Virus record (IMG/VR): IMGVR_UViG_3300010347_002008
Location: 15,877 to 79,876 of that record
Reading direction: 5' to 3' (one strand)
Length of the DNA: 64,000 nt
From: a virus
Lineage: Duplodnaviria > Caudoviricetes
Made by a program: the position numbers and the translations under genes. This document shows positions 1,824 to 61,216 of the stretch, in pieces (the first letter of the stretch is position 1; each line of letters begins with the position of its first letter). The notes below the pieces were generated by a model. That model ran no database searches, had not been told where the DNA came from, and saw only the letters and a program-made list of their open reading frames with translations.

Positions 1824-1973
1824 CTATTTTTTAACAAATTTTTTGGTTGGTTTTTTACCTTTAAATGTTATTATAAAGTAGATGAATTTTACCATATTCC
1901 ATGCCATTGCACCTAGTAAAATAGCAAAAAATATGTAAACTGGTATGAACCAAGGATTTTGTAATTCAAACAT
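1824..1973 (-). CDS. 49-aa membrane peptide (below the ORF-track cutoff)
   Basis: Hand translation MFELQNPWFIPVYIFFAILLGAMAWNMVKFIYFIITFKGKKPTKKFVKK. The ATG overlaps the end of the upstream gene; hydrophobic core with a basic tail. Confidence 0.6.
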   Translation of the reverse strand: MFELQNPWFIPVYIFFAILLGAMAWNMVKFIYFIITFKGKKPTKKFVKK

Positions 1974-2370
1974 CTTCAAAAATTTTTTTTAAAATTTTAT
2001 CTTTGCCTATCATGATGGCAGTCAATCCTAAAGATCCTCCTTCAAGTATAGCAAATTCTTCTCCATAAATAAGTGCTTTATTAAAGCAACTTCCTCTTAC
2101 AGTAAAATCAACTTTTTTTCTAACTGAGTTTGTCATAAAACACCTTTGTACTAAAGTTCTGTATAATGAATTTTTATCACTTATAATATATATGTTGTCA
2201 GCCAGTTCATCTAGTTTTGATATTATATACGCATATGTTTTTAGTTCCCTCTTTACAGGTTTATAATCTTGAATGAATTTTTTTAATGGATACGCATCTT
2301 TTAAATATTCATTAATAGATTGTTCTATTTGTTCTTTTGTTTTAGGAACTAAAATATTTTCTATGCTCAT
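1966..2370 (-). CDS. hypothetical protein with N-terminal KPK-type module
   Basis: Starts MSIENILVPKTKEQI. Confidence 0.7.
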   Translation of the reverse strand: MSIENILVPKTKEQIEQSINEYLKDAYPLKKFIQDYKPVKRELKTYAYIISKLDELADNIYIISDKNSLYRTLVQRCFMTNSVRKKVDFTVRGSCFNKALIYGEEFAILEGGSLGLTAIMIGKDKILKKIFEDV

Positions 2371-4340: not shown

Positions 4341-6093
4341 TTTTTGATTCGTTTAATTTTGTCAAATTGTATTTTTCTATATTCTCTGACAAATATTTTA
4401 AAAATGGATAGTAATTATTTGATACATATGTTTCCGAATCTTTATAGTTTGGGTTAGCTGTCAATATTTGTTTATTTCTTTCTTTATGCATTCTTAAAAT
4501 ACCATCATCAACTAAATCATCAACAAATTTTAGTCCAAATTGATCTCCGCGAGTCACCCTAAAATCAGATCTATCAATTTGTCTATCAGTTCCGTCTAAC
4601 AAACGTAATACTGCCTTCACATGACTTGGCGGATAATGACTATTTTTATGATGATTAATATAATCTATTGCTTTTACGAAGAATAAAAATTGATTACGTT
4701 TAATTCTTTCTTGAACAATTCTAAATATAGATTTATGGGATAGTTTATAATATAATAATTCAATTATTTTTTCAAAGAAATATTTGTTATGAAGAAACTT
4801 AAACTCTTTCTCCATCTGTATCATTTCTTTGTGTCCCTGCCCCGAATATTTAGGTAAAACATATGGAAGATGTCCATATTTATTCATTAACTCTCCATAC
4901 TTGGCCTCATCTAATATTTTCTGATAATCTTCAGACGAAATATAATCTAATATCCAATCACTATAGGATTTGGCTAGATTAGTTGCTCTCCATCTATTTT
5001 TCAAATTTGTTTTAGCAGTATCGATGATAGTTTGTCTAACCTTTTCTTTAGGTAAAAGTTTTAACACTCCTGATCTGTGCAATTTTTCTAAATCATATAA
5101 TGTTAAGTTCTCTTTTTCAATATACTCATTTGCATCTTTAATAACGTCTTCTTCTGCTTTTGGTTTCAAGACATCATTTATTCCTTCAACAAGAAAAGGG
5201 TATTTTTCTGCCACCTCCAATGGCAGATCTTGTTTCATGCTCTTGAGATTAACTTGAAACTTGGTCATTATTTCGTTTAACCTAGCTTTATGAATAAAAT
5301 CTTTTCTATGAATTATTTCCCATAATGTTTCAAAAGAATTAGCAGAATCAGGTTTATAACCATCTCCTAAGGCAATATCAACTACATCTTGTGGATCATT
5401 TGTGATGAATTCTGATCCTAAAACTGTACCTTTTTGAACTATATTTCCCTTTTTGCCCATAAAAGATCTCTTAATGTTCCAAACTCCAGTCGGAAACCTT
5501 ATGGCTAATGAAGTATATTCTTCTGCCTGCCCCTCAAATAATTTAGTAACTTCTTTTGTGGATTCTGAAACTAGAGCCATTAACAGTGCATTTCTTGTGG
5601 CTCCTTTATATTTTGATTCCCCTTCTGCGAGATTTGGTGAATGATACATAAATTTAGCCCATTTTAAATCAGGAGAAGGCATTAAATCTACTTGAGCATA
5701 TCCTTTTGATTCATCACCACATATAGGAACTTTGACAGATACTTGGTCAAATCCTTTTAAAAGTGTAGTTTCAAAACCATGTTCTTCATTCAATATTTGA
5801 TTAATGGCTTCTGAAATTTCTTCAAATTTCATTCCATTATCCAAAAATCTTTTCGCATCAATAGCTACATCAATATCTCCAGATTTTTCCCCTTTAGGTT
5901 TTTTTCCATAAGATCCTATTGGAAGTGCTTCATTTCTTTCAATAAAAATAAGCGGAAGAATGTTTAGTTCTACCCATTCATATGTTGGTTGAACTTCATC
6001 TGTTTCTAATGGACGAACGTTCTTAACAGCTTTGCCACCCATCTTTTTTATCTTTTTTAATGTGTTAAAAATGTTATTTAAATATTGACCCAT
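4330..6093 (-). CDS. Pol-beta-superfamily nucleotidyltransferase plus a second module after an internal KPK motif
   Basis: IGSYGKK...SGDIDVAID (GS...DxD) and QVDLM (third Asp); internal LVEGINDVLKPKAEED. Confidence 0.7.
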   Translation of the reverse strand: MGQYLNNIFNTLKKIKKMGGKAVKNVRPLETDEVQPTYEWVELNILPLIFIERNEALPIGSYGKKPKGEKSGDIDVAIDAKRFLDNGMKFEEISEAINQILNEEHGFETTLLKGFDQVSVKVPICGDESKGYAQVDLMPSPDLKWAKFMYHSPNLAEGESKYKGATRNALLMALVSESTKEVTKLFEGQAEEYTSLAIRFPTGVWNIKRSFMGKKGNIVQKGTVLGSEFITNDPQDVVDIALGDGYKPDSANSFETLWEIIHRKDFIHKARLNEIMTKFQVNLKSMKQDLPLEVAEKYPFLVEGINDVLKPKAEEDVIKDANEYIEKENLTLYDLEKLHRSGVLKLLPKEKVRQTIIDTAKTNLKNRWRATNLAKSYSDWILDYISSEDYQKILDEAKYGELMNKYGHLPYVLPKYSGQGHKEMIQMEKEFKFLHNKYFFEKIIELLYYKLSHKSIFRIVQERIKRNQFLFFVKAIDYINHHKNSHYPPSHVKAVLRLLDGTDRQIDRSDFRVTRGDQFGLKFVDDLVDDGILRMHKERNKQILTANPNYKDSETYVSNNYYPFLKYLSENIEKYNLTKLNESKNEI

Positions 6094-8760: not shown

Positions 8761-8765
8761 TTTTT

Positions 8766-8773
8766 TATTTATA
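8766..8773 (-). promoter_or_regulatory. T4-type late promoter TATAAATA
   Basis: Exact TATAAATA just upstream of the amidase start. Confidence 0.7.
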
Positions 8774-8815
8774 TATCAAAAATAAAGGGGTTTTAGCCCC
8801 TTTATTTTTGATATA
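8772..8815. terminator. 19-bp perfect inverted repeat / bidirectional terminator
   Basis: tatatcaaaaataaagggg-ttttag-cccctttatttttgatata. Confidence 0.75.
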
Positions 8816-10519: not shown

Positions 10520-10786
10520 TTAGATATTTATATTATAATAATTTGACATCAAAGTTTTGATTTCATCTATTAATTCTTCTTTAGATAAATTACTAAAGAA
10601 AATTTGAGGAGTCATTTTAATAAGTTCAGCCTTAGATATTAATTTATCATGATAAAGTTGCTCAGCAAAATTCCATAGAATATCTGCTAGTTGAATTTCA
10701 TCTAGTTTTTCAAGATCCTTAATTTTAATATTTGATTTAGGTTTTAAAATATCTTCTAATTTTTCAATAACAAGTTTGGTTGACAT
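10520..10786 (-). CDS. small KPK-module protein
   Basis: MSTKLVIEKLEDILKPKS. Confidence 0.7.
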   Translation of the reverse strand: MSTKLVIEKLEDILKPKSNIKIKDLEKLDEIQLADILWNFAEQLYHDKLISKAELIKMTPQIFFSNLSKEELIDEIKTLMSNYYNINI

Positions 10787-11106
10787 TATCTAAATTTATT
10801 TGGAAATATAGTTCTCCATTCATGCCCTCTAGGAACATCAGAAACCTTAACACCAAAAATTTTCTGTTCAGGACACGGATCATTACCATCTATTAAAAAA
10901 TTATTGTTGCAAGCCCAAGTTTCTATGTTTCTGCTTATTCTCTGTCCTACATTAAATGGAAATCTAATTCGTGAATTTAAATTATCTACTCTAGATATTC
11001 GTCCATCAAGATTTTTATACACAACAAAAGACAATGATGGATTTATTTTATGTGTAAAAGTAATTTTAACATCACTAAATCCTTCATTTACAAGTTTGGC
11101 TCTCAT
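10786..11106 (-). CDS. hypothetical protein with M(R/K)AKxVxE leader
   Basis: MRAKLVNEG. Confidence 0.7.
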   Translation of the reverse strand: MRAKLVNEGFSDVKITFTHKINPSLSFVVYKNLDGRISRVDNLNSRIRFPFNVGQRISRNIETWACNNNFLIDGNDPCPEQKIFGVKVSDVPRGHEWRTIFPNKFR

Positions 11107-12101
11107 TATAATTTAAATTTATTTTCATCAATAAATTTTCTTAAATCATCAGGAATTTCATCATTATGAGCATAATCTTTGTTCCACATATATTTAGGAA
11201 TATAAACAGCCCATACTCCAGATCCTTCTTGATGTTGATATTGATGTGCTGCTCTAATTTTCATCATCGGAACTTGTGATAAACTACCTGAATCATATTT
11301 ATTTAATTTAACTAAATTTTCAATTCCCATTCTTCTTTTATGAACTGTTTCTCCGCCAATTTCCTTTTCAATAAATTCAGGATAACCGATAAAAGCATAT
11401 ACATCATAATATTCATCTCTTAAAGCTTCTTCTTCAGAACGAGTTTCTCTATATAAAGATAATTTTAACTGTTCAATATCCTTCTTGTTAAATAATTTAT
11501 TATCTCCATATCTTCCACTCTCAGGGATAGTTATGTTTGCAGCTTTGTCAAGTATGTTACTTCTTCCATATTTTTCTCCCATTTCATGAATTAATTCTTG
11601 AAGATTATCAACTTCTCGACGATCTATAGCTCCTTTAATTTTAAATAGAAGCATTATTTGATTTGTTTCTGGGTCAACTCTTGGGTCATCTTCAACATCT
11701 CTAAATAAGTCAGGCCATGATTTAAAGAACCTCCAAACTAACATAGCCTTTTCATTAAAATCTTTTTTGTTTAAAATATAATCTTTTAATTCCTTTAATA
11801 ACCCATCATCTTTCATTCCTGAAAAAATATCAGGGAGTTGTTTTTCAATTTCTTCAATATAATTGACTTTTTCAATAACATCAATTTTTTGTAATTCTTT
11901 CTTTACTTCATTCCTAATATCTGCAACAACTTCAGGCTGCTGTAAAAGACCTTTATACATTTGCCCGTGTTGTTTCTGCATCTGTTGAATCCTTTTAATT
12001 TTTTCAGATACAGACATGTTTTTAATTTGATTTAAAACCTCCACTGCTGTTTTTGGTTTTAAAATATCTCCTAAGGCCTCATATACTTTTTGTGCTTTCA
12101 T
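11106..12101 (-). CDS. KPK-module protein (start re-assigned to the ATG at 12101)
   Basis: MKAQKVYEALGDILKPKTAVEV matches the family leader; the upstream track start overlaps the previous gene. Confidence 0.7.
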   Translation of the reverse strand: MKAQKVYEALGDILKPKTAVEVLNQIKNMSVSEKIKRIQQMQKQHGQMYKGLLQQPEVVADIRNEVKKELQKIDVIEKVNYIEEIEKQLPDIFSGMKDDGLLKELKDYILNKKDFNEKAMLVWRFFKSWPDLFRDVEDDPRVDPETNQIMLLFKIKGAIDRREVDNLQELIHEMGEKYGRSNILDKAANITIPESGRYGDNKLFNKKDIEQLKLSLYRETRSEEEALRDEYYDVYAFIGYPEFIEKEIGGETVHKRRMGIENLVKLNKYDSGSLSQVPMMKIRAAHQYQHQEGSGVWAVYIPKYMWNKDYAHNDEIPDDLRKFIDENKFKL

Positions 12102-12111
12102 ACTAAAAATA

Positions 12112-12900
12112 TTATTTATAAACATATCCTGCAATATGTCCTCCATAAGGAAGTATTAATTCTCTCATCCATTTCAAAGGAACATAATCAACCATTTGCC
12201 AACGCCCAATATTATTTCCATTTTGGTCATGATAGAAATTTTGTATTTGGCCAATTTGATAACTAGGTTTGGTGCCAGTTGTAAATAATAATCTATAATT
12301 AAAGAACTTTCTTTTTGTTAAATCAATTTCTTCTTTGGGTTTTGGCTTTAATATACTTGAAATTCCAGTTGATGGTGTTTCAACTCCTTGTAAATGAGTA
12401 TAATCATGACCCTTTGGATCCACCCATACTTCCACAGTACTATCAGGTTCCCATGTATCATAAACATTAAAAAGTGGACATTCGCCTGTTCTTAAATCAA
12501 CTTTTCCCAGAGGAAGTATAGCATTTCCTCTAAATCGACCACTTCTTCCTGAAACTTGGATCAGTATATAATGTGGTTTATATTGTTGTTCTTTAGGAAG
12601 TTTACTACCTAATATTGGATGATCTTTAAGAACCTCAAGTCTTTCAGCCGGTGGAGGCCCTTCATATCCTAATTCCTTTGCTTTATCATAGAATATTTGA
12701 ACTATTTCATTCCAACCACCATAAACCTCTGCAGCAGCTTCTGCTCTTCCAATTGCCTTATTAACATTAGTAAGAGTTTTTGCCATTTGACGTGCCAATG
12801 CAACTTCTTTTTCAAAATCTCCTCCAGATTTCTTAGCAAAGTCCTTCACACGTTTAAGATCTTTTGGTTCGTATGCTTCATTTACAAATTTAGCTCTCAT
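12112..12900 (-). CDS. leader-bearing protein with internal KPK motif
   Basis: MRAKFVNEA; internal ISSILKPKPKEEID. Confidence 0.7.
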   Translation of the reverse strand: MRAKFVNEAYEPKDLKRVKDFAKKSGGDFEKEVALARQMAKTLTNVNKAIGRAEAAAEVYGGWNEIVQIFYDKAKELGYEGPPPAERLEVLKDHPILGSKLPKEQQYKPHYILIQVSGRSGRFRGNAILPLGKVDLRTGECPLFNVYDTWEPDSTVEVWVDPKGHDYTHLQGVETPSTGISSILKPKPKEEIDLTKRKFFNYRLLFTTGTKPSYQIGQIQNFYHDQNGNNIGRWQMVDYVPLKWMRELILPYGGHIAGYVYK

Positions 12901-13282: not shown

Positions 13283-14062
13283 TTAAAAATCATCATCATC
13301 TTCATAATTCCCAAAATGTGGTTCTCTTCTTTTGTTTCCAACACCAATCGAGTGTTTAGTAAGTAGAATATCCAAAACATCATTAACCTCTTCCGGATTT
13401 TCAGTTTCAAAATATTCTTTTAAGGCTTTATCAAATTGTTCATCATTTATATAATCTAAAAAATATTCAATTACATTTTGTTGATAAGGTATTAATTCTC
13501 TAATAATTTGTCTTAATTGTTCAGGCTCCATTTTTTCCATTAGAACCTCTACAAATATTTCTTCATCTGCCCCTGCATCTATTAAATATCTTACAACATC
13601 TTCAGGATTCATAAATTTATCTTTAACCGCCCGCATTTTTTCTTCAGCATCATATTGGTCAAGATACTTTTGAATGTCTTCTTTAGATTTGGGTTTCAAA
13701 ACATCTGTAATAGATCCCTCGTTAACCTCTTCTTCATATTGAACAAATCTTTCAAGAATATCTACGGCTTTGTCTAAATCTATTTGTTCAATATCATATC
13801 CTAATTGTTCAAGTGTACGGATAGCTAATCTTTCTAATTCTGATCTATCGCGAACATAATAATCTCTCAATCCTGCTGCAGCAGCATCACGTAATTGCCA
13901 TTGCCACCAAGTTTCATCCATATTTAACTTAGCTTCTTGGTTCAATTCCCATTTAAATATGGGATCTTGCCATTGCCACCAAGTTTCATCCATATTTAAC
14001 TTAGCTTCTTGGTTCAATTCCCATTTAAATATGGGATCTTCAGTTACATGTTTTGCTCTCAT
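13283..14062 (-). CDS. acidic two-module KPK protein with a 24-aa tandem duplication
   Basis: MRAKHVTE leader; internal VNEGSITDVLKPKSKEDI. Confidence 0.7.
   Translation of the reverse strand: MRAKHVTEDPIFKWELNQEAKLNMDETWWQWQDPIFKWELNQEAKLNMDETWWQWQLRDAAAAGLRDYYVRDRSELERLAIRTLEQLGYDIEQIDLDKAVDILERFVQYEEEVNEGSITDVLKPKSKEDIQKYLDQYDAEEKMRAVKDKFMNPEDVVRYLIDAGADEEIFVEVLMEKMEPEQLRQIIRELIPYQQNVIEYFLDYINDEQFDKALKEYFETENPEEVNDVLDILLTKHSIGVGNKRREPHFGNYEDDDDF
13895..14040. repeat. perfect 72-bp tandem duplication
   Basis: 13895-13966 is identical to 13967-14038. Confidence 0.9.
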
Positions 14063-14379
14063 CCTAAAGCTCTTTTCATTAATTCATCTGTGATTTCATT
14101 CACATGATCTTGTAAAATATCACTTAAAATCCAATGTATTTTTTCATTGTTTGTTCTTCTCGAGGAACCACTCCAAAAAGAAATATAAGTATCAATTAAA
14201 TCTTGGTCATCAATTCCTCTCTCAACAAATTCATCATACAATTTTTTCCAGTTTTCTCCAAATAATTCTACAACAATGGCATATTTATTCGTTATTGATC
14301 CTTTATCTATTAATTCTTCTACAATCTTTTTTGGATCCTTAGGTTTTAATATGTTAATGCTTTCTCTTACTAATTCCAT
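14059..14379 (-). CDS. small KPK-module protein
   Basis: MELVRESINILKPKDPKKI. Confidence 0.7.
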   Translation of the reverse strand: MELVRESINILKPKDPKKIVEELIDKGSITNKYAIVVELFGENWKKLYDEFVERGIDDQDLIDTYISFWSGSSRRTNNEKIHWILSDILQDHVNEITDELMKRALG

Positions 14380-15164: not shown

Positions 15165-15182
15165 TATATTTTTTATTATATA

Positions 15183-45883: not shown

Positions 45884-45896
45884 AATATTAGAGTTT

Positions 45897-47235: not shown

Positions 47236-47265
47236 TTTTGAATAAATAAAATAAATCGTTGATCA

Positions 47266-49131
47266 ATGCAAGCTAACTTTGTATACGAAGCTTTACAAGA
47301 TATATTAAAACCTAAATCCAAGGAAGAAGTTACCGCGGCTTATAAAAAAATCGAAACCGATAAGGCTTTAGAATTGGCGGTGGAACATAAAAATTTAGAA
47401 GGGGTTTTTGATGCTTTACGAAGAGGAGCTTCATGGAATAAAAATGATTCTTATCAGAGTTTAGAAGATAGTTTGCTTTTATTTTTGTCAAAAAATAAAC
47501 AAGAAATTTTATCAGGTAATCCATCCCATAAAACATTAGGTGTTTTATTAAAGCGGGCTTCTCAAAACGGATTTATTGATTTAATTAAATGGGCTTTAGA
47601 CAAAGGGGCCCCTATAAATTTTCAAGATCAAAATGGAAGTACTCCACTTTATTATGCTGCTAAGTATGGTCATTTTGAAGCCCTTAAATTTTTGATTGAA
47701 AACGGGGCAGATTTAGAATTAGAAAATAATGAAGGGTTTACTCCCCTATTAGCATCATTAAATCCTATTCAAACCGGACCAAATTCTAATTTCATAAATC
47801 CGCAAAGTGTGTGGTATTTAATTGATAACGGTGCTGATATAACCCATAAATTAAAAAATGGGTCCAGCATTTATGTATTTTTAAAAGGAAAATTATTGGA
47901 TAGATTTTTGGATGAAACAGATTTAAAACCTAGTGATGAAGAAACGATTTATATAATTCATCGAGGTTCCATTAAAAATATAAAAAAATTATTAGATAAA
48001 GGATATTTAGATCTAAATAAACCCATATACATTAAATATTCCAAATGGGACAACAAACCCAATAAACCATTACTGCCAATAGATCATATTAAATTTGAGG
48101 ATGAAACAGGACCAGGAAAAATGAAATTTATGTTGCAGAATGGTAGTCCATTTCCTAATAAATCAACTATAAAAGCCATAAGAAATCAACTTCGAAATTC
48201 AAGATATAGTTATGGGCCAGATGAAAAATGGCGTAAACTTATAAATTATTTTATAGAAACAAAACAAATATCCGAATCAGTTGGTGACGTATTAAAGCCT
48301 AAAGGTAAAAAACAAATTATTGAAGATTTAGCTCAAGAAATGTATTTAAGCCTATTAGAAAATAAAGCCTTAAGTTTCTTTGAACCTTTATTTAGTGAAG
48401 GCCCACATAGAATGACAATAGCATGGGACAATATAGATTATTCCTTCAACCAATACCATAAAAAATATGGATCTGGATTATATGTTATGTCAATGTTAGT
48501 AAAAGAACAAGATGCAAATCCATTAGAACACATATACCCAGTCAAAGCCGTTTATAAGCAAGCAGGAGTAATAGTTTATGATATTCAAAGAAGTTCTTTA
48601 GAAACAGCGATCAAAGAATTAATAGCACAAGTTATTGCAGGTATATTTGGAAATGGATTTCATATAAAATATTTTGATCCTATTAACGAATCAAGTCATG
48701 GGGTTTTTAAACCCAAACGTGTAGAAGATATTCTCGATAGTATTGTAAATAATATTTTGAGAGATTATTCTGATCACACAATGCATTTTCATAAAGATGA
48801 ATATTGGAGGGATCCTCCTGTAAAATTATCCCATCATTCTGGTGATGGATTTATGAATCAATTATACAAAAAATATGGAAATGTAAATGGTATCTATGTT
48901 CATGTTGAAGATAATGACCCGACAGAATCTAAAGGAGAAAATCTAAACTTATTACGAAAATATTTACATAATTTGAACGTAAGATACACGCCGATAGGGC
49001 ATAATACGATCATCATCAGAGATGATGATCAAGAAAGAAGAATAATAGCTAAATTATGTCGTGAAGTTTACAATAAAGTGCTTCCATCAATAATGGTTAG
49101 AAAGTTTGGAAGGCCAATTAATATGAAATAA
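47266..49131 (+). CDS. three-module KPK protein; first module has ankyrin repeats
   Basis: GSTPLYYAAKYGHFEALKFLIENGAD and GFTPLL ankyrin repeats; KPK motifs at the N-terminus and twice internally. Confidence 0.8.
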   Translation: MQANFVYEALQDILKPKSKEEVTAAYKKIETDKALELAVEHKNLEGVFDALRRGASWNKNDSYQSLEDSLLLFLSKNKQEILSGNPSHKTLGVLLKRASQNGFIDLIKWALDKGAPINFQDQNGSTPLYYAAKYGHFEALKFLIENGADLELENNEGFTPLLASLNPIQTGPNSNFINPQSVWYLIDNGADITHKLKNGSSIYVFLKGKLLDRFLDETDLKPSDEETIYIIHRGSIKNIKKLLDKGYLDLNKPIYIKYSKWDNKPNKPLLPIDHIKFEDETGPGKMKFMLQNGSPFPNKSTIKAIRNQLRNSRYSYGPDEKWRKLINYFIETKQISESVGDVLKPKGKKQIIEDLAQEMYLSLLENKALSFFEPLFSEGPHRMTIAWDNIDYSFNQYHKKYGSGLYVMSMLVKEQDANPLEHIYPVKAVYKQAGVIVYDIQRSSLETAIKELIAQVIAGIFGNGFHIKYFDPINESSHGVFKPKRVEDILDSIVNNILRDYSDHTMHFHKDEYWRDPPVKLSHHSGDGFMNQLYKKYGNVNGIYVHVEDNDPTESKGENLNLLRKYLHNLNVRYTPIGHNTIIIRDDDQERRIIAKLCREVYNKVLPSIMVRKFGRPINMK

Positions 49132-49184
49132 TTTACAAAACTGATTAAAAATATATGAATTTATACGAAAATATATGAAATTAT

Positions 49185-50941: not shown

Positions 50942-51289
50942 ATGAAAATATTAGTTAAACCTGGATTTGTAAGAACCATTACTTTGGGTTTTGCTGCGGC
51001 AATTACGTTGTGGCCATTTGGTATTTTTTTATTAAAAGATAAATATTTAAACAATGCGATTCTCATAAATCATGAGGCAATACATTGGAAACAAAGTCAA
51101 GAGTTATTAGGCATTTTATTTTATATAATTTATGTATTAGAATGGTTTATTAAACTATTCATTTATGGAAAGAATGCATATTATAACATATCATTTGAAA
51201 GAGAAGCAAATTATTATGAAAACAATTTAGAATATACAAAAACACGAAAACATTTTAAATGGATAAAATTTATTTTTAAGAAATGTTAG
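50942..51289 (+). CDS. small membrane-associated HExxH protein
   Basis: AAITLWPFGIF, NHEAIHWKQ, ISFEREA. Confidence 0.65.
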   Translation: MKILVKPGFVRTITLGFAAAITLWPFGIFLLKDKYLNNAILINHEAIHWKQSQELLGILFYIIYVLEWFIKLFIYGKNAYYNISFEREANYYENNLEYTKTRKHFKWIKFIFKKC

Positions 51290-51552
51290 TAAGAGAATCA
51301 CTAGAAGATATATTAAAACCAAAATCTAAAGAAGAAGTTAATCAAAACTTCAAAGAATTAGAACAAAGAGTACGAAACATTCCAATAAAAGAGGATGCAA
51401 TATTTGAGGTTGCGCGTTTATTAGGAGGAGAAGAATTCGATTGGAGTTATAGCGATGTTTCTCGTGAGATTATTGATTATATAAGTGACAATGAATTTTA
51501 CGATGCTCTTATCTACGTATTAAAAAACAATATAGGATTTGAATTAGAATAA
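51283..51552 (+). CDS. small KPK-module protein
   Basis: MLVRESLEDILKPKSKEEV. Confidence 0.7.
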   Translation: MLVRESLEDILKPKSKEEVNQNFKELEQRVRNIPIKEDAIFEVARLLGGEEFDWSYSDVSREIIDYISDNEFYDALIYVLKNNIGFELE

Positions 51553-51566: not shown

Positions 51567-52301
51567 ATGACCAGAGTTGAATTAATAAAGGAGGTCCAAA
51601 ATGCTTTAACTGCTTGTGCTGCACTTCCGTATGCACCCCCAGACGCGGAAATAGATCGTTTGATTGGTGTTGAAATGAAGTGGTTATTTCGTGAGTACAG
51701 AACATTATGGCAGGATCAAATTTATCTCTTAAATAAAAAATATTATACTACTAAAGAGTGGCGTAATACAAGAACATTCCAATTACCAGAGTGTGTTGTA
51801 GGTATTAAGATTGTATGGGAAATGACGCATGGAAGCCGCGTATTTGGTATTAATGACCCTGACCTGAACTTCGACAGATTAATGGCATCGGATCTTTATT
51901 TGACACCATTATCTTCAGACCAAATAACATATAGAACAATTCAGTGGTCATTCTGGGACCTTGCAAGAGCATTTAACTTAAGAGATATAAATCACAATTT
52001 CAACTTAAATACAAAACGATTGGTGATAACAGGGAGAACTCCTGTTGAATCATTATTCATTTTAAGTCAAGTACAAATTCCTGATGAAGATGCATTTGAA
52101 GATCCTTTAGTTTTAAAATGGATGATCGCGCAAGGAAAAAGATCTTTAGCAAGAATTCTTGGAGCGTTCAATTATCAATTATTAGGAAATGTTACGATAA
52201 ACTTCGAACAAATAAGAACAGAAGGAAACGAAGAATTAGCAGAATTAAAAGAAAAAATAAAGACCGACGACGTAGCCGACTGGTTCTTACTATTCCCATA
52301 A
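51567..52301 (+). CDS. gp13: neck protein (T4 gp13-like)
   Basis: C-terminal AQGKRSLARILGAF..QLLGNVTIN..IRTEG.EEL matches the gp13 pattern (LPGGVTIDG..L.EEA). Confidence 0.7.
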   Translation: MTRVELIKEVQNALTACAALPYAPPDAEIDRLIGVEMKWLFREYRTLWQDQIYLLNKKYYTTKEWRNTRTFQLPECVVGIKIVWEMTHGSRVFGINDPDLNFDRLMASDLYLTPLSSDQITYRTIQWSFWDLARAFNLRDINHNFNLNTKRLVITGRTPVESLFILSQVQIPDEDAFEDPLVLKWMIAQGKRSLARILGAFNYQLLGNVTINFEQIRTEGNEELAELKEKIKTDDVADWFLLFP

Positions 52302-52393
52302 TGAAAGCACAAAAAGTATATGAAGCAATAGGTGATGTTTTAAAACCTAAAACATTAGAAGATATGGAAAAAGCTATCGCAGCACTCATGTAG
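52301..52393 (+). CDS. 30-aa minigene consisting almost only of the leader plus KPK module
   Basis: MKAQKVYEAIGDVLKPKTLEDMEKAIAALM; the ATG overlaps the gp13 TAA. Confidence 0.65.
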   Translation: MKAQKVYEAIGDVLKPKTLEDMEKAIAALM

Positions 52394-52848: not shown

Positions 52849-53460
52849 AGGCAAAATTTGTATATGAATCAATACAAGAAGGAGTAGCCGATAAATACGC
52901 ATCTGCTAGGTTTGGAATTACAGACCCAGATGAGGAATTTGAATTGCAATGGGCAGGACGTCAATTATCTGGGCAGGCTCTTACTTGGATTCATGGCTAT
53001 CCACTTATAAAAAATCCTAAATCATTTGGAACATTTTGTTCCAAATGCTAGAGCCGTTATTTTGGCAAATGGAGATTTGTATGTCATTTCAGACGCATTA
53101 CATATTATTCATACTAAAATGTTGGGAAGGATGAAAGAACTGGATATAATTGATGAAAAGACAACAGGATGGGAAGATCCGTTTGAGCGAAATCCCGATC
53201 AATTTATTGCGGTCCAAAGAGTTTGGAATAAAAATGCATTTGCTTTAAGCGAATCATATGTAATTCCTAAGAGAAAGAAGGGGGAACCAGCAAGTCCTGA
53301 AAGACTTGAGGCTCTTCGTTTGTTTTTTCCATTTCTAAAAGCTGCCGCACACAAGTTTCCTCAATATCAATTTGTTCCAGAACAAATTATGGCTGCTTCT
53401 AGAGAAATGCTATCAGACTTAGAATTACAAAGACAAAAACAATATAAAGCCGGGTTATGA
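52845..53460 (+). pseudogene. leader-bearing gene split by one extra T at about 53025 (track ORFs 52845-53051 and 53026-53460)
   Basis: Removing one T gives ...KNPKSLEHFVPNAR... in one continuous frame from MKAKFVYESIQE. Confidence 0.65.
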
Positions 53461-53810
53461 AGCTTGTAAAAGAATCTGTTGAAGATATATTAAAACCAAA
53501 AAATTTAATTGGAAAAAAATTCTATGTTCGTAGTGACGCAACTGGAATGATAGAATTTATTATCGAAATACATGATATTCACGACGAACAGTTAGACGTT
53601 AAGGTTATTTATAATAATCATATGATTGAAGGCCCTGCTATTTTTTCTCTTGAGGAAGGAGAATTTTCTGGCGCTAAAGATATATATTTTGATTTTGATG
53701 ATTTTCAATATTATGGATTTAAAGAATTAAATGAGGAGGCCTTTATAGAATTAGATAAAAAAATAAAGGAATTACAAAATTTTAAAAAATATTTACGATC
53801 TATTTTATGA
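53457..53810 (+). CDS. KPK-module protein
   Basis: MKLVKESVEDILKPKN. Confidence 0.7.
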   Translation: MKLVKESVEDILKPKNLIGKKFYVRSDATGMIEFIIEIHDIHDEQLDVKVIYNNHMIEGPAIFSLEEGEFSGAKDIYFDFDDFQYYGFKELNEEAFIELDKKIKELQNFKKYLRSIL

Positions 53811-55636
53811 AAGCAAAAAAAGTTTCTGATATTTTAAAGCCTAAACCCGACGATGACATCATGTCAGAACTTTTAGAAGTTGAACCTGACAAACTAGATG
53901 TTATGCTTTCTATCTATAAAAAATGGAAGCCTATATTTAAAAAAGAAATAAATCGTCCAGAATTATCTTCTTTTGGAGATAAAGTGCGTGCATTTAAAAG
54001 AGATTTGGAAATAGAACAAAATGCAATTAAAGGAACTGGTTATCGCGAAGGAGGAAGCACTGGTTTTAGGGGTTTATTACGTTTGATTAATTGGTGGGAA
54101 AGTGGCAGATACTCTTCTGACATGTTAGAAGAAATGATTGATCAATGGATAAAAACCGTTGAAGTAGCTCTAAAACACTTTAAAACGATGGCTAAACGTG
54201 AATATCATCCAATCAAAGAGGAAGTCTTAGATATTTTTAAACCAAAATCTCAAGAAGAACTTATTCCATTAATTCGCGATAAATTTCCCATATTTCTAGA
54301 AGTTTATAATGCCCTTTTCCCTGATTATAAATTGAATATAAATCCGGGCGGCGTATCTTGTGAATTTGATACAAAATATTTTACAATATGGTTTCATCAA
54401 GATGAAGAACAACCATTTCCTAGGATTGATATGGGGGCTTATCGTAAAGAAACACCAAGAGTATTTTCTCCATATAAAATAGTCAAAAATGTAAAAGATG
54501 CCAAAGATTTTATAGATATGGTATATGATATTGAAAAACAAATTATTAACATTAAAAAAACAAGACCAAATCAAGTACATTCTATTACAATCACTGAACT
54601 ATCAAATATATTTTCACAATATCCTCAATATTTTTCTGATAAAACAGTTAAAGATTTAGTTTATTTTTTTAGATCATTTGGTCATCACAAATATCTTAAT
54701 GAATCAATTAGTGATATTTTGAAACCTAAATCAGAAAAAGAAATTGAAAAAGAAATGGGTAAGCTTTCTGGAGATGAATTATGGGATTTATGGAAAGATA
54801 CAGGACAAAAAGAATATTTAAGGCGAGCATTAAAAAAGAATTTAACATTTCCTATAGGTAGCGAAGATATAGCAGAAGCAATTCAGCAATTTCCTGATTC
54901 TACTGAAATCCTGTTTCCCCTTATAGTTAAGAATTTTCCGTATAAATTAAAAAAGGAAGGACAAAAATATATTCTTTATGCTGATTGGTATGATGAATTT
55001 TCGGATTTATTTATGGAAGGTAATGACATATCTAAAGAATCTATTGAAAAGATATTATCAGGGGATTCATGGGATTTATTTGAGAGATATGGGTCAGAGG
55101 GTATGAATTTAGATGATGAAATATATGCCATCCAAAAAATGGAAAAGGATAAAGGAGTTACATATTTTAAATCATTAACAGAAGAATTAGTAACTAAATT
55201 ATTAGAGGATTTTAATTGGCTTGATTATGATAATACAATGGAGATTAAAAATTTAAAAACTTTAACAGATGTAGCCAAATTTTTAATAAAATATCAAGAT
55301 GAAAGAGACCTAGAAGAATATATTGACGCATTTGAAAAGGCTTTAAATGAAACACAAGGTATTGCTGATGAATCACAAGCCTTCAATGAATTAAAAAATT
55401 TATTAGAAAAAGAATTAGGATTTAAATTTGAAACAAAATATTATAGTGAAAAGGATAAATGTTATAAAATTCCTCTTTCAAAGGATTCTATAATAGAGAT
55501 CTTTAAAAAGGCGAATATAGATGATAACAAAATAAGATACAACCCACCTTATTACTATAATGGAAACATTTATGATCATCCAGATGTTTTTAATGATAGC
55601 TTAAGTAATAGTATTTCTGAAATAGATGAAGGCTAA
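53807..55636 (+). CDS. three-module KPK protein
   Basis: KKVSDILKPKPDDDI; PIKEEVLDIFKPKSQEEL; LNESISDILKPKSEKEI. Confidence 0.75.
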   Translation: MKAKKVSDILKPKPDDDIMSELLEVEPDKLDVMLSIYKKWKPIFKKEINRPELSSFGDKVRAFKRDLEIEQNAIKGTGYREGGSTGFRGLLRLINWWESGRYSSDMLEEMIDQWIKTVEVALKHFKTMAKREYHPIKEEVLDIFKPKSQEELIPLIRDKFPIFLEVYNALFPDYKLNINPGGVSCEFDTKYFTIWFHQDEEQPFPRIDMGAYRKETPRVFSPYKIVKNVKDAKDFIDMVYDIEKQIINIKKTRPNQVHSITITELSNIFSQYPQYFSDKTVKDLVYFFRSFGHHKYLNESISDILKPKSEKEIEKEMGKLSGDELWDLWKDTGQKEYLRRALKKNLTFPIGSEDIAEAIQQFPDSTEILFPLIVKNFPYKLKKEGQKYILYADWYDEFSDLFMEGNDISKESIEKILSGDSWDLFERYGSEGMNLDDEIYAIQKMEKDKGVTYFKSLTEELVTKLLEDFNWLDYDNTMEIKNLKTLTDVAKFLIKYQDERDLEEYIDAFEKALNETQGIADESQAFNELKNLLEKELGFKFETKYYSEKDKCYKIPLSKDSIIEIFKKANIDDNKIRYNPPYYYNGNIYDHPDVFNDSLSNSISEIDEG

Positions 55637-56105
55637 AAAAGTATACGAGTCAAGTATTTTGAAACCTAAAACGACTGATGAAATAGTCAGCTCATTTATC
55701 AATCTGTCTATAAGCGAGCAGGTTGAATTTTTAGATGATTATGAAAACAGACACATAATCCCATTCGAAAACTGGCCATTAATTCTACAAATAAAAGAAC
55801 AATTAAAGAACAATCCACAATTTGATAGTATGTTTAGAGTAACATCTAATGATGCACTCAATCAATTTGCCTGGTCATTTAGTCCTGATGAACAAATAGG
55901 TACAAAATTTAAAATCTATAGCAGGCTCAGTAATAATATTCAACCGATTAACGTTGAACAATATAATAGTGAACCAGACACCATCCACGTATACGAAGAA
56001 GCCGATACTGCGAATGAACAAGTCATCGAATCATACGACGGGTTTATTAAATGGTTAAATGATGATTATCTTTGGAAAAAAGATAAAATCCAAATAAATC
56101 CTTAA
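55626..56105 (+). CDS. KPK-module protein
   Basis: MKAKKVYESSILKPKTTDEI. Confidence 0.7.
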   Translation: MKAKKVYESSILKPKTTDEIVSSFINLSISEQVEFLDDYENRHIIPFENWPLILQIKEQLKNNPQFDSMFRVTSNDALNQFAWSFSPDEQIGTKFKIYSRLSNNIQPINVEQYNSEPDTIHVYEEADTANEQVIESYDGFIKWLNDDYLWKKDKIQINP

Positions 56106-56621: not shown

Positions 56622-56650
56622 GAAAGAGGGATTATTTCCCTCTTTTTTTA
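56622..56650. terminator. bidirectional terminator between convergent genes
   Basis: aaagaggga-ttatt-tccctcttt with flanking A/T runs. Confidence 0.75.
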
Positions 56651-57084: not shown

Positions 57085-58157
57085 GGATAATTTACTCTCA
57101 TAAAATCTTCAAGATACCATTTATTGCCGTTTTCATCTTGAAAAAATGCTTTTGATTCTCTTTCATCTTCGTCAGTCAACCCAACATCCTCTTCTTCATC
57201 TTCACGAAAATCACACTCTATTTCAGCACCATGTGGAACTATTTCGCCTGTAAAACGATATTCGACACCATCTCCGCTTTCAACAATCTTTAATTCTATG
57301 CCGCCCATATTTGTTAAAGCCAAAACTCCGTCTGGATTCCAATCATTTTGATAATATGTTTGTATTATTTTTTGTGCTACCTCGGCTGGCGGTATCTTAT
57401 CTTTAAACCCTTCATCTACAAATTCGCGATATTTACTAAAAATAGTATCATCACCAAACATAACTCTTTGCCGGTCAATTTCTTTATCAACCATATCTGT
57501 ATATTCATCTACCTCCGTATATTCAAGAGCCTTTTGTATTTCTTCTCTTGATTTTGGTCTTAAAATATCTCCCAGCGACTCTTTTATAGATTTATGTTTT
57601 TCCAACCAAGGAATCAAAATATCTAACGTATCTTGATAACCTGACCAAGCAGATGATCCCCAATCTATATCAACTAATTTAATAGCATTATGAACATCTT
57701 GGTATGTAGTTTCTTTAAAATTTTCTAATATCCATTTCATCACCTTTTTCATACCCATATAAAGGGTTTTTTGCAAAACAGACTCTCTAAATCTTGGATA
57801 TTTTTTATATAATCCCGTTATTTGTTTTGATTTCAACATTTCAATAATTAAATCCTGTGTTTCTTCGGCATCTCCCATACTATTATAAGCAGCCCATAAA
57901 TTACCGCTAGATCCATTGGTTTTAGGAACATAAGTATATAGAGGTTTTGCTCCGTGTTTAAGAGCATATTTTGCATATGAAACATTTCTTCGATTTATAG
58001 CTGCTAATAAGTGTTCTGTCGCGCTCTTTTTATCTCCTATTTTGTAATCAGGATCATTTGTAAGATTTTTTTCAATTTCCTCTTCAGATTTAGGTTTGAA
58101 AACATCTCCAACAGCTTCTTTAAACAATTCAGATTCAGTTATGAATTTAGCCTTCAC
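57081..58157 (-). CDS. two-module KPK protein (first module ankyrin-like)
   Basis: GTG start; FKEAVGDVFKPKSEEEI; HLLAAI....YAKYALKHGA; internal IKESLGDILRPKSREEI. Confidence 0.7.
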   Translation of the reverse strand: MKAKFITESELFKEAVGDVFKPKSEEEIEKNLTNDPDYKIGDKKSATEHLLAAINRRNVSYAKYALKHGAKPLYTYVPKTNGSSGNLWAAYNSMGDAEETQDLIIEMLKSKQITGLYKKYPRFRESVLQKTLYMGMKKVMKWILENFKETTYQDVHNAIKLVDIDWGSSAWSGYQDTLDILIPWLEKHKSIKESLGDILRPKSREEIQKALEYTEVDEYTDMVDKEIDRQRVMFGDDTIFSKYREFVDEGFKDKIPPAEVAQKIIQTYYQNDWNPDGVLALTNMGGIELKIVESGDGVEYRFTGEIVPHGAEIECDFREDEEEDVGLTDEDERESKAFFQDENGNKWYLEDFMRVNYP

Positions 58158-58211
58158 TAATCAAAGTTTATTTTATATATCAATTTTCTAACTATTTCCA
58201 AGTTTAGAATA

Positions 58212-58219
58212 TATAAATA
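58212..58219 (+). promoter_or_regulatory. T4-type late promoter
   Basis: TATAAATA 12 nt upstream of the gp25-like start. Confidence 0.7.
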
Positions 58220-58230
58220 AAAATCATTAG

Positions 58231-58596
58231 ATGATTCGAGAAATATACAATCGAAGCCCTCAAGATCCTAATTTTAAATATGGTGTGTTAGAACACTCCG
58301 ATCCTATTGAGAGCATCATTTCGAAAATAAAAATGATATTAGGAACGAGTCAAGGACAAGTTCTCGGAGACCTTAATTTTGGTGTTGGGTTAGAGGATCT
58401 TATTTTCGAAACTCGTATCAATAAAATGGAACTTGAAGAAAGAATCAAAGCACAAATAATGCAATATGTTGATGAATCAAAAGACTATCAAATAAGCCCA
58501 AGTGTTTCATTTGGAAGGGCTCCTGAAGGATATGATTATGCGGTAGTTGACATCTTCATAAATAATCAAAAGATAATTGGAGTATTAGTACAATAA
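58231..58596 (+). CDS. gp25: baseplate wedge protein gp25-like
   Basis: IKMILGTSQGQVLGDLNFGVGLEDLIFE matches the gp25 pattern (I..IL.T..GER...P.FG..L..L.FE). Confidence 0.8.
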   Translation: MIREIYNRSPQDPNFKYGVLEHSDPIESIISKIKMILGTSQGQVLGDLNFGVGLEDLIFETRINKMELEERIKAQIMQYVDESKDYQISPSVSFGRAPEGYDYAVVDIFINNQKIIGVLVQ

Positions 58597-58886
58597 TGAA
58601 AGCACAAAAAATATATGAGAATATTTTAAAACCTAAATCCGGAGACGAGGTTACACAAGCCCTTATTACTAAATATAATAATATGGATCCAGAAATTTTT
58701 AATTTTTTAAATGATTTAGATTATAAATTTGTAAATTCTGAAAAATTGGTTTTTAAAGCAGAAAAAGAAGCAACTTTAACATTATATGTATTAAATTTTT
58801 ATAAACCTATTGCAGGAAAAACACTACGTGTATTATTAACAGATACTCTAAATGATGTTAAAAAGAAAGTTTATAGACAACTATAA
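58596..58886 (+). CDS. KPK-module protein inserted in the baseplate operon
   Basis: MKAQKIYENILKPKSGDEV. Confidence 0.7.
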   Translation: MKAQKIYENILKPKSGDEVTQALITKYNNMDPEIFNFLNDLDYKFVNSEKLVFKAEKEATLTLYVLNFYKPIAGKTLRVLLTDTLNDVKKKVYRQL

Positions 58887-58901: not shown

Positions 58902-60821
58902 ATGGCAAATAGTAACAACCAAAGATTTGAATTTTTTAAGACATCACGAATTCGTTTTAGCGAATTATATCAAGATGCTCTTAATTTTATAAAGGCAAGT
59001 TATGAAGATGTAGGTCAATATTTTACAATGGCTTCTCCTATGGGCCAATTGTTACAGATTACTCTTCATCTTGGAAGAATGATACTCTTCTATATTGAAG
59101 ATGCTATCACTGAATTAAATATAAACACAGCGTCTCGTCCTGCAAGTGTAAAGGGAATCGCAGCTATAACAGGCCACAATCCTTCAAGGGCTATGGCCGC
59201 ACGAGGAACCTTGCGTCTTACATACAATGGACAAAAAATCAATATGTACGGAAACACCGTAACGATTCCTAATTATACTCAATTGACATCTGTTACTAAT
59301 GGCCTTATATACACTATAGTTTTACCTGGAGAAGAAATTAGATTAGACTTAACAAGCATAACAAACTATATAGACGTAAATGTTATGCAAGGAAAACTTG
59401 AATATCAACAAGCCACAGGAACAGGAGACCCATTGCAATCATATAATTTCCAAAATAAAAAGGGAGCAGGAATTGATAATTATTTTGTTAATGTTTACGT
59501 TGACGGAAAAAGATGGGAAACAAGACCATCCATTCTTGATATGGGATTCAATGAAGAGTCTGTAATGGTTAAAACTGGACAAACAGGGGGGATTGATATT
59601 TTCTTTGGCACCGGATATAATGGCAAACCCCCAAGAATGGGATCAACAATACTTGTCGAGTATCTTTTGACAGACGGTGAACCTGGCAATATTAAAAGCC
59701 CTGCAACTGAATCAGAGGCTAGTTGGAAATTTGTAACTCAAGGATATTCATTAAATGGTGAGGATATTGATTTAAATAAGATTCTAAAAGTTTCGATTAA
59801 GAATGATATTCTATTTGGAACATTGGAAGAACCTCTTTATCTTACCCGATTATTAGCTCCTCATATGTCAAGATCATTTACTCTTGCAAATGCTGACAAC
59901 TACATTTATTTCTTACGTAAATTAAATATGTTCACAATTGTCGATGCGATTCCTGGGTTTGCAACCTTTGAGGACAGATATGCGTTAGACAAATATAATC
60001 AAGCAAAGGATAATTACGAAATAGTAAGTGAACAATATAGATCACTGTTATCTACTGTTGGAGCTAATTCAGAATTATCGATGAATAAGAAAATAGAATT
60101 AGATAATGCTCAAAATGAAGTTTATAAATGGCAAGGAATTCTAGAAGAACAAAAGAAAGATGATAATACTGTTTATTTGTTCTTAGTTCCAGATGTAAAC
60201 AAAAGAATTTCTGCAGCTCAAAACTATTATACTTGTGCGTTGGATTCATTCCAACTTACTGATAATGAAAAGACAGCCATCCTGGACCTCATAGAGGACA
60301 GCGGGCAAAGAATTATTACAGTGGATAATGCTATTATGACTCTAAAATACCCACGATTTGTGCTTAATCTAACATTAATAATTTATGAAGGGTTTGATTT
60401 TGATTCTATAAGAGAATCTATAATTTCTAAAACTTCAGAATATTTCTTAAAAAATACACGTAGAGATAGAATACCAGTTTCAGATATAGTTCGTATTGTT
60501 GAGGCTATTGAAGGTGTTGACTCTGTATCTGCCTGGTTTGACGCAGATAAAAATAACCTAACTATTTATGGAGATCATTATGGGTTAGATGATTATGGGG
60601 ATATAATTCTTGAACGTTATGTTTATGATGCGTTTGGAAACAAGGTCCCAGTTAAAGATATTTACCCCTTAATTCGTGGCGGATTCGAATCTTTTAATAG
60701 TGTTTATTATGATGATTCAACAGAAAAGAATAAACTGTCTACTTTGAATATAAATCTAAGGGGAACAACTCCCGTAGATTTCAATTCAAAGAACAATAAA
60801 ACTATTGTAAGTAACATCTAA
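58902..60821 (+). CDS. gp6: baseplate wedge protein gp6-like
   Basis: 639 aa; GHNPSRAMAARGTL, GGIDIFFGTG...P..GSTILVEYLLTDGEPGN, RSFTLANADNY; follows gp25. Confidence 0.75.
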   Translation: MANSNNQRFEFFKTSRIRFSELYQDALNFIKASYEDVGQYFTMASPMGQLLQITLHLGRMILFYIEDAITELNINTASRPASVKGIAAITGHNPSRAMAARGTLRLTYNGQKINMYGNTVTIPNYTQLTSVTNGLIYTIVLPGEEIRLDLTSITNYIDVNVMQGKLEYQQATGTGDPLQSYNFQNKKGAGIDNYFVNVYVDGKRWETRPSILDMGFNEESVMVKTGQTGGIDIFFGTGYNGKPPRMGSTILVEYLLTDGEPGNIKSPATESEASWKFVTQGYSLNGEDIDLNKILKVSIKNDILFGTLEEPLYLTRLLAPHMSRSFTLANADNYIYFLRKLNMFTIVDAIPGFATFEDRYALDKYNQAKDNYEIVSEQYRSLLSTVGANSELSMNKKIELDNAQNEVYKWQGILEEQKKDDNTVYLFLVPDVNKRISAAQNYYTCALDSFQLTDNEKTAILDLIEDSGQRIITVDNAIMTLKYPRFVLNLTLIIYEGFDFDSIRESIISKTSEYFLKNTRRDRIPVSDIVRIVEAIEGVDSVSAWFDADKNNLTIYGDHYGLDDYGDIILERYVYDAFGNKVPVKDIYPLIRGGFESFNSVYYDDSTEKNKLSTLNINLRGTTPVDFNSKNNKTIVSNI

Positions 60822-61216
60822 TGAGAGCAAAAATCATACAAGAAGCAATGAAAGATATTCTTGTTCCTAAAACGAGACAAGAAATTAAAAGAGGTGTGAA
60901 AGAAAGCAACAATCCTTCTATAGTTTTAAAATTTAAGATAAAAGAAGCATGTAAAGAATATTGGAAAAATAAAGGGGTTAAATTTGGCAAGCCAAATTCA
61001 CCTGAAATATTTTATGATGAAAAGGGAGACTTTCGTTACGAATTTGGTTTTAGCTCATCTAAATTACTAAATGGTACTCCATTTATAGCAGAATATGCAG
61101 ATATTATAGGAACACAAATGGGGGCGTTTAATCAATTATATGGTCGTTTTATGTTAAAGGGAGGAAAGTGGTCTAATTCAACTCAATCCATTATTTACAT
61201 GAAAATTAATGAATAA
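60821..61216 (+). CDS. KPK-module protein inserted in the baseplate operon
   Basis: MRAKIIQEAMKDILVPKTRQEI. Confidence 0.7.
   Translation: MRAKIIQEAMKDILVPKTRQEIKRGVKESNNPSIVLKFKIKEACKEYWKNKGVKFGKPNSPEIFYDEKGDFRYEFGFSSSKLLNGTPFIAEYADIIGTQMGAFNQLYGRFMLKGGKWSNSTQSIIYMKINE

Follow-up and report, generated by a model that had tools for sequence, protein, structure and literature searches.

A recurrent peptide module in the window

The DNA analysed here (the window) is a 64,000-nucleotide stretch of an IMG/VR tailed-phage record (IMGVR_UViG_3300010347_002008, positions 15,877 to 79,876), in which a short peptide module recurs at the start of, or inside, largely unrelated proteins. The module is about 20 residues long and consists of a junction followed by a tag of about 14 residues, called here the KPK tag after its Lys-Pro-Lys motif. 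Its core reads aliphatic residue, any residue, Glu, small residue, two residues, Asp, Ile/Val, Leu/Phe, Lys-Pro-Lys, Ser/Thr, any residue, Glu, Glu, Ile/Val. The Pro and the second Lys of the motif are invariant among the copies, and a Glu seven residues ahead of the first Lys, with I, L or V two residues before it, is kept in 90% of the aligned copies. At N-termini the junction closes a leader of 5-8 residues, which ends in [ILV]-x-Glu and is followed by Ser, Ala or Gly; several leaderless genes begin exactly at the N-terminus predicted for a product cut after this Glu. The best-conserved part of the module is the peptide that such a cut would leave in place, rather than the leader.

A profile hidden Markov model (HMM) was made from the module copies and run on the six frames of the window, and it returned 24 matches (E 1.6e-10 to 1.6e-4) in 18 open reading frames (ORFs), each on the coding strand. 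The best other match in the window had E > 1, and the tail and fibre block at 16698-45883 contained no copy in any of the six frames. The preliminary description of this DNA had counted 24 copies in 18 ORFs, and the HMM arrived at the same number in the same ORFs, including those with two copies (14370 and 57081), those with three (47266 and 53807) and a remnant (52301). ORFs with a leader and no tag, also mentioned there, were found at several places. The part of the record that precedes the window (15.9 kb) contains two further copies. The copies located by the HMM are, with the leader-only ORFs recognised by the leader pattern at the end:

2272..2370, minus strand: KPK tag, leaderless, V-P-K variant, at the N-terminus of ORF 1966-2370 (E 1.3e-7)
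5089..5202, minus strand: internal junction and KPK tag in ORF 4330-6093, after a nucleotidyltransferase-like unit of ~300 residues (E 1.6e-6); look-alikes of this N-terminal unit are stand-alone viral proteins of ~320 residues
7108..7221, minus strand: internal junction and KPK tag in ORF 6742-7968, which also has an 8-residue leader at 7945-7968 (E 2.4e-6)
10667..10786, minus strand: leader and KPK tag at the N-terminus of ORF 10520-10786 (E 3.3e-6)
11982..12101, minus strand: leader and KPK tag in ORF 11106-12146, whose true start is likely 12101 (E 3.2e-7)
12271..12384, minus strand: internal KPK tag without the Glu in ORF 12112-12900, an insertion of ~36 residues in a domain conserved in the sister clade (HMM and sister-clade comparison)
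13619..13732, minus strand: internal junction and KPK tag in ORF 13283-14062, which has a leader at 14039-14062 (E 1.9e-8)
14269..14379, minus strand: leader and KPK tag at the N-terminus of ORF 14059-14379 (E 1.6e-4)
14667..14780, minus strand: internal junction and KPK tag in ORF 14370-15164 (E 1.1e-8)
15045..15158, minus strand: leader and KPK tag, Q-P-K-P-K variant, at the N-terminus of ORF 14370-15164 (E 1.2e-8)
47266..47385, plus strand: leader and KPK tag at the N-terminus of the 621-residue ankyrin protein 47266-49131 (HMM, domain scans and structure prediction)
48259..48372, plus strand: internal junction and KPK tag of 47266-49131, in a coil or low-confidence linker between predicted domains (HMM and structure prediction)
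48673..48786, plus strand: second internal junction and KPK tag of 47266-49131, in a segment below 50 in predicted local distance difference test (pLDDT) between two alpha/beta domains (HMM and structure prediction)
51283..51393, plus strand: leader and KPK tag at the N-terminus of ORF 51283-51552 (E 1.6e-10, the best copy)
52301..52393, plus strand: remnant ORF of 30 codons with leader and KPK tag only (a decayed tag gene)
53457..53570, plus strand: leader and KPK tag at the N-terminus of ORF 53457-53810
53807..53914, plus strand: KPK tag at the N-terminus of the 609-residue ORF 53807-55636
54203..54316, plus strand: internal junction and KPK tag in ORF 53807-55636
54686..54799, plus strand: internal junction and KPK tag in ORF 53807-55636
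55626..55739, plus strand: leader and KPK tag at the N-terminus of ORF 55626-56105
57483..57596, minus strand: internal junction and tag, R-P-K variant, in ORF 57081-58157 (E 2e-7)
58020..58157, minus strand: leader and KPK tag at the N-terminus of ORF 57081-58157
58596..58706, plus strand: leader and KPK tag in ORF 58596-58886, which overlaps the stop of a gp25-like baseplate gene and lies ahead of the gp6-like gene
60821..60940, plus strand: leader and tag, V-P-K variant, in ORF 60821-61216, which overlaps the stop of the gp6-like baseplate wedge gene
10786..11106, minus strand: ORF with an 8-residue leader and no tag
50598-50891, plus strand: leader-only ORF, no tag
52606-52848, plus strand: leader-only ORF, no tag
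52845-53051, plus strand: leader-only ORF, no tag
56632-57084, minus strand: leader-only ORF, no tag

The module recurs throughout a large phage genome

The record containing the window is 79.9 kb long and is a fragment of a larger phage genome. A second IMG/VR record, G001 (259,840 bp, rated 64% complete), is 90-99% identical to it in reverse orientation. The tail sheath is 42-44% identical to the sheath of Prevotella Lak megaphages, the baseplate wedge and SSB are T4-like, and a related complete genome with terminal repeats, G008, has a length of 405 kb, which together identify the window phage as a T4/Lak-like phage of about 400 kb; its GC content is 30%. The standard code applies, with 96% of the sequence coding under table 11. 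Two paralogous fibre-like proteins with collagen-like Gly-rich N-termini (20052-22127 and 22172-24148) contain BACON domains, indicating that the host is probably a member of the Bacteroidota. BLASTN of 8 kb of the window against 50,697 phage records gave no match, the KPK tag was absent from Lak-C1, Lak-A1 and Flavobacterium phage MaF61, and the 31 relatives of the tag found in databases were all metagenomic proteins without names.

In G001, 63 copies of the module were found in 52 of the 333 ORFs, 43 of them within the first 30 residues and 20 internal, and about 25 more ORFs have the short leader only. An aliphatic-x-Glu sequence followed by a small residue occurs within residues 2-10 of 16.6% of the G001 ORFs, compared with 2.8% of internal windows (about 6-fold enrichment). 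Roughly one gene in six begins with the module peptide or joins its domains by it; the system extends beyond the 18 ORFs of the window and is a genome-wide trait of the whole phage group.

Where the peptide is conserved, the choice among synonymous codons matches that of the whole genome: copies with the same residue share its codon at a frequency of 0.60, against an expected 0.53 (range 0.48-0.59). This free variation indicates that selection acts on the peptide, as had been argued before, and a DNA-level repeat or a promoter/leader cassette was ruled out on the same ground. The hydrophilic character of the module and its internal copies ruled out a role as signal peptide or in secretion. No curated family of Pfam or PHROGs covered the module in any of the 20 bearers scanned, and a literature search for the motif strings and for N-terminal motifs of Lak, Jug and huge phages returned nothing relevant.

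One junction is followed by different tags in different clades

Comparison of 59 IMG/VR loci around the gp6-like baseplate gene revealed the KPK tag only at loci with a gp6-like protein at least 79% identical. A sister clade (gp6-like protein 73-75% identical) has the same leaders and junction at like places, followed by a different peptide with the consensus NFERGxDPKxxMGIG; a 133-kb record contains 34-38 copies of it, with as many as five in one protein. A third clade has a tag of the form Ser-Gly-Leu-Ser…Ile-Gly-Ile-Gly, and in the complete genome G008, 64 of the 498 ORFs bear a tag of the form Lys-Phe-x-Glu-Glu-Ser-Asp-Pro…Met-Gly-Ile-Gly, with about 85 copies in all, nearly every copy preceded by aliphatic-Asn-Glu. 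Across the four clades the aliphatic-x-Glu junction is constant, with the KPK tag in one and three related "DP…MGIG" tags in the others. A more distant relative has a drifted KPK-like tag in all 5 of its copies.

Homologous cargo bears the tag of its own clade, as exemplified by a helical-repeat family. In one orthologue pair the proteins are 70% identical up to a common Leu-Val-Lys-Glu-Ser junction, after which the KPK clade continues with a KPK tag and a 70-residue unit and the sister clade with a truncated copy of its own tag and then a stop. The constant junction, the clade-specific tags and the clade-matched cargo indicate that junction and tag are separable, and the tag behaves like a dialect common to all copies in one genome. 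The earlier idea that the KPK part is a second signal gains support from this swapping between sister clades with the junction unchanged.

A different account would make the leader and junction mainly an evolutionary device, a shared linker for recombinational shuffling of cargo with little biochemical role, comparable to the junction motifs of polymorphic toxins or to the leader that T-even phages conserve at their internal-protein locus. Turnover of the cargo is indeed fast: core genes of different clades are reciprocal best hits, but tag genes hardly ever. Genes have fused and split at the junctions, and decayed remnants exist, such as that at 52301-52393 of the window. However, codon variation as wide as genome usage permits leaves no conserved DNA on which recombination could act, no DNA repeats lie beneath the copies, and purifying selection on about 20 residues over 60-85 copies requires a function of the protein. 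We regard this account as very unlikely.

Internal copies lie between predicted protein units

The Glu is kept at the same spacing, with I, L or V two residues before it, in 16 of the 20 internal copies of G001. AlphaFold2 prediction on an alignment of module paralogues (mean pLDDT 78) placed the Lys-Pro-Lys kink between a one-turn helix, itself preceded by coil, and a long helix. In the ankyrin protein 47266-49131 both internal junctions fall in coil or in segments below 50 pLDDT between three predicted domains. Relatives encode the same cargo with or without an extra upstream unit attached via the junction, and one orthologue stops right at the junction position. The reading of internal copies as polyprotein junctions, proposed in the preliminary description, is favoured by this linker position and by the relatives with separate or shorter genes, but it does not extend to at least one copy, that at 12271-12384, an insertion without the Glu.

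Tagged proteins are diverse

To group the cargo, units of G001 were compared by BLASTP with the tag masked, and 70 units (median about 114 residues) fell into 63 groups. The statement that the cargo is unrelated therefore holds largely, with the exception of a few small families. With 63 of the 70 masked units being singletons, the possibility that the tag is the conserved start of one repeated domain was mostly rejected. The 20 tag proteins scanned with Pfam and PHROGs are 57-621 residues long, and the scans revealed ankyrin and helicase domains only, and no MuF, Rhs or secretion-marker domain. The cargo identified comprises ankyrin repeats in four proteins, which had been predicted and were confirmed by the domain scans, and one XPD/DinG-like helicase. 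This helicase has a leaderless N-terminal KPK tag (L069:14397-16172, G001 194397-196172). Language-model look-alikes of the pre-tag unit of ORF 4330-6093, stand-alone proteins of about 320 residues, hint at the nucleotidyltransferase proposed earlier, for which no other support was found. An HExxH motif is present in ORF 6742-7968, as had been described, and this ORF matched no peptidase family.

The prohead protease and the capsid protein follow the junction rule

In Lak-C1 a Peptidase_S77 domain and an acidic scaffold-like tail form one protein, and a gp23-like capsid protein is encoded as well; the sister clades likewise have both the protease-scaffold fusion (53 bits on Peptidase_S77 for a sister-clade protein) and a gp23-like capsid protein. 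In an alignment of eight diverse protease homologues two sites are invariant: an Asn-Glu close to the N-terminus, with a small residue after it, and a Glu-Ser that immediately follows the catalytic domain. The window genome and the 260-kb G001 contained no prohead protease except a frameshifted, diverged S77-like frame, G001 being without the protease-scaffold gene because the contig ends about 3 kb short of it; two IMG/VR profile scans with Lak-type proteases found no KPK-clade locus. Walking off the end of G001 led to a KPK-clade contig, G010, with KPK tags, a 783-residue protease-scaffold protein (47708-50059, 60% identical to the sister-clade protein) and a 585-residue capsid protein.

In the G010 protein the protease domain is followed by Val-Asn-Glu and then Ser, and 15 residues on by Leu-Asn-Glu and then Ser. 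The capsid protein of G010 has the sequence ALNE/AAMGG, which aligns with FLTE/AEIGG of T4 gp23, and the solved mature chain of T4 gp23 begins at the Ala after FLTE. The protease and the capsid protein of the KPK clade have the module's junction rule at these putative maturation sites. [ILV]-Asn-Glu is 5-8 times denser in protease-scaffold proteins than genome-wide, and 54 of the 213 such tripeptides of G008 are tag junctions. The leader of T4 gp24 ends in Leu-Arg-Glu followed by Ser, the same form as many leaders here.

Two observations concern the surroundings of these head genes. A patatin-like phospholipase gene (L256:5997-7533, G010 45997-47533) lies directly upstream of the protease-scaffold gene and is itself preceded by a leaderless KPK-tag gene. 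A 176-residue protein (L066:17737-18267), whose gene is also found where the 79.9-kb record begins, in the part ahead of the window, has a 6-residue leader ending in Met-Asn-Glu and then a copy of the first ~35 residues of the mature capsid N-arm. Its gene has a late-like promoter, and the product may mimic the capsid arm or be a minor protein of the shell or core.

The diverged S77-like frame lies between UvsX-like and DnaB-like genes outside the window (L170:1382-1935, G001 186440-186935). It is short, split over two frames and altered in the region of the catalytic Ser. The frame could be a pseudogene or a frameshifted gene, or else a paralogue that has diverged, as reported in SPN3US-type phages. 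Such a second enzyme would be one candidate if the junctions were cut in the cytoplasm, by a phage protease acting outside head assembly, with the tag serving for recognition or later localisation. Diverged prohead-protease paralogues are known in SPN3US-like phages (PMC5694885), the frame stands among replication genes, and conserved residues C-terminal of the cut would suit an exosite. The split frame and its altered catalytic region tell against this possibility, as do the studied S77 enzymes, which work inside proheads, and the lack of a known precedent for cytoplasmic polyprotein processing in tailed phages, and we consider it improbable.

Tag genes follow candidate late promoters

The sheath, tube, fibre and gp25-like genes, and also arrays of tag genes, are preceded at a distance of 14-30 nt by the motif RATATATAAATAA, which has 6 matches in the window against 0.54 expected. 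It resembles the T4 late promoter and is a candidate late promoter. The motif search located:

8765-8777, minus strand: RATATATAAATAA match
22135-22147, minus strand: RATATATAAATAA match
38206-38218, minus strand: RATATATAAATAA match
45896-45908, minus strand: RATATATAAATAA match
15172..15184, minus strand: RATATATAAATAA at the head of the tag-gene array that runs from 15164 down to ~9891
58173..58181, minus strand: late-promoter-like motif upstream of tag gene 57081-58157
58208..58220, plus strand: RATATATAAATAA at the head of the baseplate operon with tag genes 58596-58886 and 60821-61216

The latter two tag genes are those that overlap the stops of baseplate genes. In the 260-kb relative the motif also stands ahead of several GIY-YIG endonuclease genes.

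Other genes of the window

Homing-endonuclease genes of the GIY-YIG type are numerous, at 1-390 and 61540-62262 of the window and in more copies in G001; the first is broken into ORFs 1-189 and 190-390 in the window and intact in the near-identical relative. Within the tail-fibre block, two adjacent paralogues of 500-545 residues (40841-42478 and 42503-44002) have near-identical N-termini and no family match.

Discussion

The explanation that we favour, tentatively and with somewhat less than even confidence, is that the tagged proteins are prohead-protease substrates loaded into the capsid, and that the retained tag is a clade-specific docking signal. The module would then comprise two consecutive signals. 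The first, the junction of aliphatic-x-Glu and a small residue at the end of a 5-8-residue leader or between domains, would be the cutting site of the T4-type (S77) prohead protease of the phage. The second, the tag, predicted as a one-turn helix, the Lys-Pro-Lys kink and a Ser-capped helix, would stay on the product for lineage-specific docking, its partner probably lying inside the prohead, as the scaffold, the core or another component. Bearers of the module would be made late, taken into the prohead, cut at their junction or junctions and delivered with the DNA, and fused genes would give several tagged products. The preliminary description had already read these as head-packaged, co-ejected proteins; packaging is made more plausible by the S77 protease in the lineage, the matching junction rule, the leaders like those of T4 gp24 and the internal proteins, the linkers and the late-like operons, and we infer cleavage, loading and ejection from these features.

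A shared leader on varied cargo is a principle already known from T4, where capsid targeting leaders of 10-20 residues are found on gp24 and the internal proteins (PMC5694885, PMC3012670), that of gp24 being a 10-residue capsid targeting sequence (PMC5694885), and where the cargo is a hypervariable set of anti-defence proteins (PMC3012670). The T4 leaders (IPI, IPII, IPIII, Alt and gp24, removed by gp21) resemble those described here in being short, in ending with aliphatic-x-Glu and in standing on unrelated proteins. The KPK clade likewise has leaders ending in [ILV]-x-Glu, an S77 protease, a gp23-like capsid protein with an aligned maturation site and apparently the same rule at head maturation sites, which places the system in the T4-type class by its sequences. 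T4 has about five leader genes, compared with 50-65 tag genes per genome here. Also unlike T4, the system described here has a conserved tag of ~14 residues after the predicted cut, internal copies and a wholesale replacement of the tag between sister clades. The new elements are the tag that would stay on the product, its replacement in concert between clades and the occurrence of junction copies inside proteins.

Phages phiKZ, 201phi2-1 and SPN3US (protease gp175/gp245) are also giant, with ~50 head proteins, cuts after Glu and families of paralogues. Ser is favoured after the cut in these phages, propeptides are cut at multiple sites, the protease cleaves its own C-terminus, and a diverged protease paralogue exists (PMC10052503, PMC5694885). 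Their propeptides are mostly 100-250 residues long without a shared retained tag, whereas the leaders here have 5-8 residues. Their (Ser/Ala/Gly)-x-Glu rule does not describe the junctions here, in which I, L or V stands three residues before the cut in essentially all junction-bearing copies, and the lineages are unrelated, the phage here being T4/Lak-like by sheath, capsid and baseplate.

Short conserved peptides also border interchangeable cargo in polymorphic toxins and in phage polyvalent proteins, with fast cassette turnover and sometimes cleavage at the border. The motif here is N-terminal on small units of ~90-150 residues, unlike that of polymorphic toxins, and the likeness is one of logic, not of sequence. 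Polyvalent proteins are very large multidomain proteins with a MuF or head-morphogenesis anchor, which the 20 scanned tag proteins do not resemble. Viral polyproteins, such as those cut by 3C-type proteases, have similar repeated junction motifs in linkers that separate independently folding units, and a virus-encoded enzyme; unlike them, most units here are also separate genes, and cleavage here is predicted from sequence. To our knowledge, polyprotein cutting at repeated junctions is not a strategy of tailed phages.

Several findings weigh against capsid loading. Aliphatic-x-Glu is a weak motif (~18 per 1000 residues genome-wide), and 4 of the 20 internal copies of G001 have no clear junction. 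The window copy at 12271-12384 interrupts a conserved domain and has no Glu. T4 places its targeting information in the leader that is removed, but the best-conserved part of the module here would stay on the product. The XPD/DinG-like helicase bears the tag and is no obvious cargo. The neighbours of many tag genes are tail and baseplate genes and not head genes: only ~2 tags occur in 53 kb around the head genes, and there was no tag gene within 10 kb of the capsid gene at 42 loci. No cultured relative bears the KPK tag. Finally, capsid cargo amounting to 13-23% of all genes would be far above any studied phage. The SPN3US head contains ~50 proteins and >40 MDa of ejection proteins (PMC7411985, PMC10052503), so that cargo numbers such as those here are not absurd.

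Some of the same findings would suit a module that is never cut and has no capsid role, a short interaction tag on fast-evolving accessory domains that bind one common intracellular partner. This partner could be a phage hub protein, a chaperone, the import receptor of a phage-made compartment or a host factor. The superior conservation of the retained peptide, the leaderless genes that open directly with the tag and the insertion without Glu are what such a tag predicts; the helicase and several ankyrin proteins among the bearers are typical intracellular binders, the concerted drift within a genome is expected for co-evolution with one partner, and the AlphaFold2 model shows an ordinary helix start. 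An uncut tag leaves unexplained, however, the aliphatic-x-Glu and small residue at a fixed spacing in four clades with different tags, the match to the maturation-site pattern of the protease and the capsid protein, and the 5-8-residue leaders like that of T4 gp24, and the late-like operon context points elsewhere. We consider the uncut tag possible but doubtful.

Proteolytic loading of the capsid, which we prefer, has a more far-reaching form: an address system on 13-23% of the genes of a ~400-kb phage group, in which the protease junction exposes a tag that co-evolves with the receptor of its clade in the prohead, the four tags are dialects, and fused genes are polyproteins cut in the capsid into several tagged effectors. 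In this full form, in which the phages would have the largest virion cargo system known and could address it in a programmable way, the proposal is speculative, and we would call it rather unlikely than likely. Even if the capsid interpretation is wrong, a selected 20-residue peptide in 60-85 genes per genome that is swapped in concert points to a central partner worth finding. If it is right, these phages would bring dozens of effectors, made beforehand, into the cell, among them ankyrin binders, nucleotidyltransferases, a helicase and many uncharacterised proteins. This would change the reading of the large "dark" gene content of huge phages and would provide a simple sequence rule to pick injected proteins from metagenomes, and the swappable tag with its receptor would be a natural orthogonal packaging handle for engineered protein delivery by capsids.

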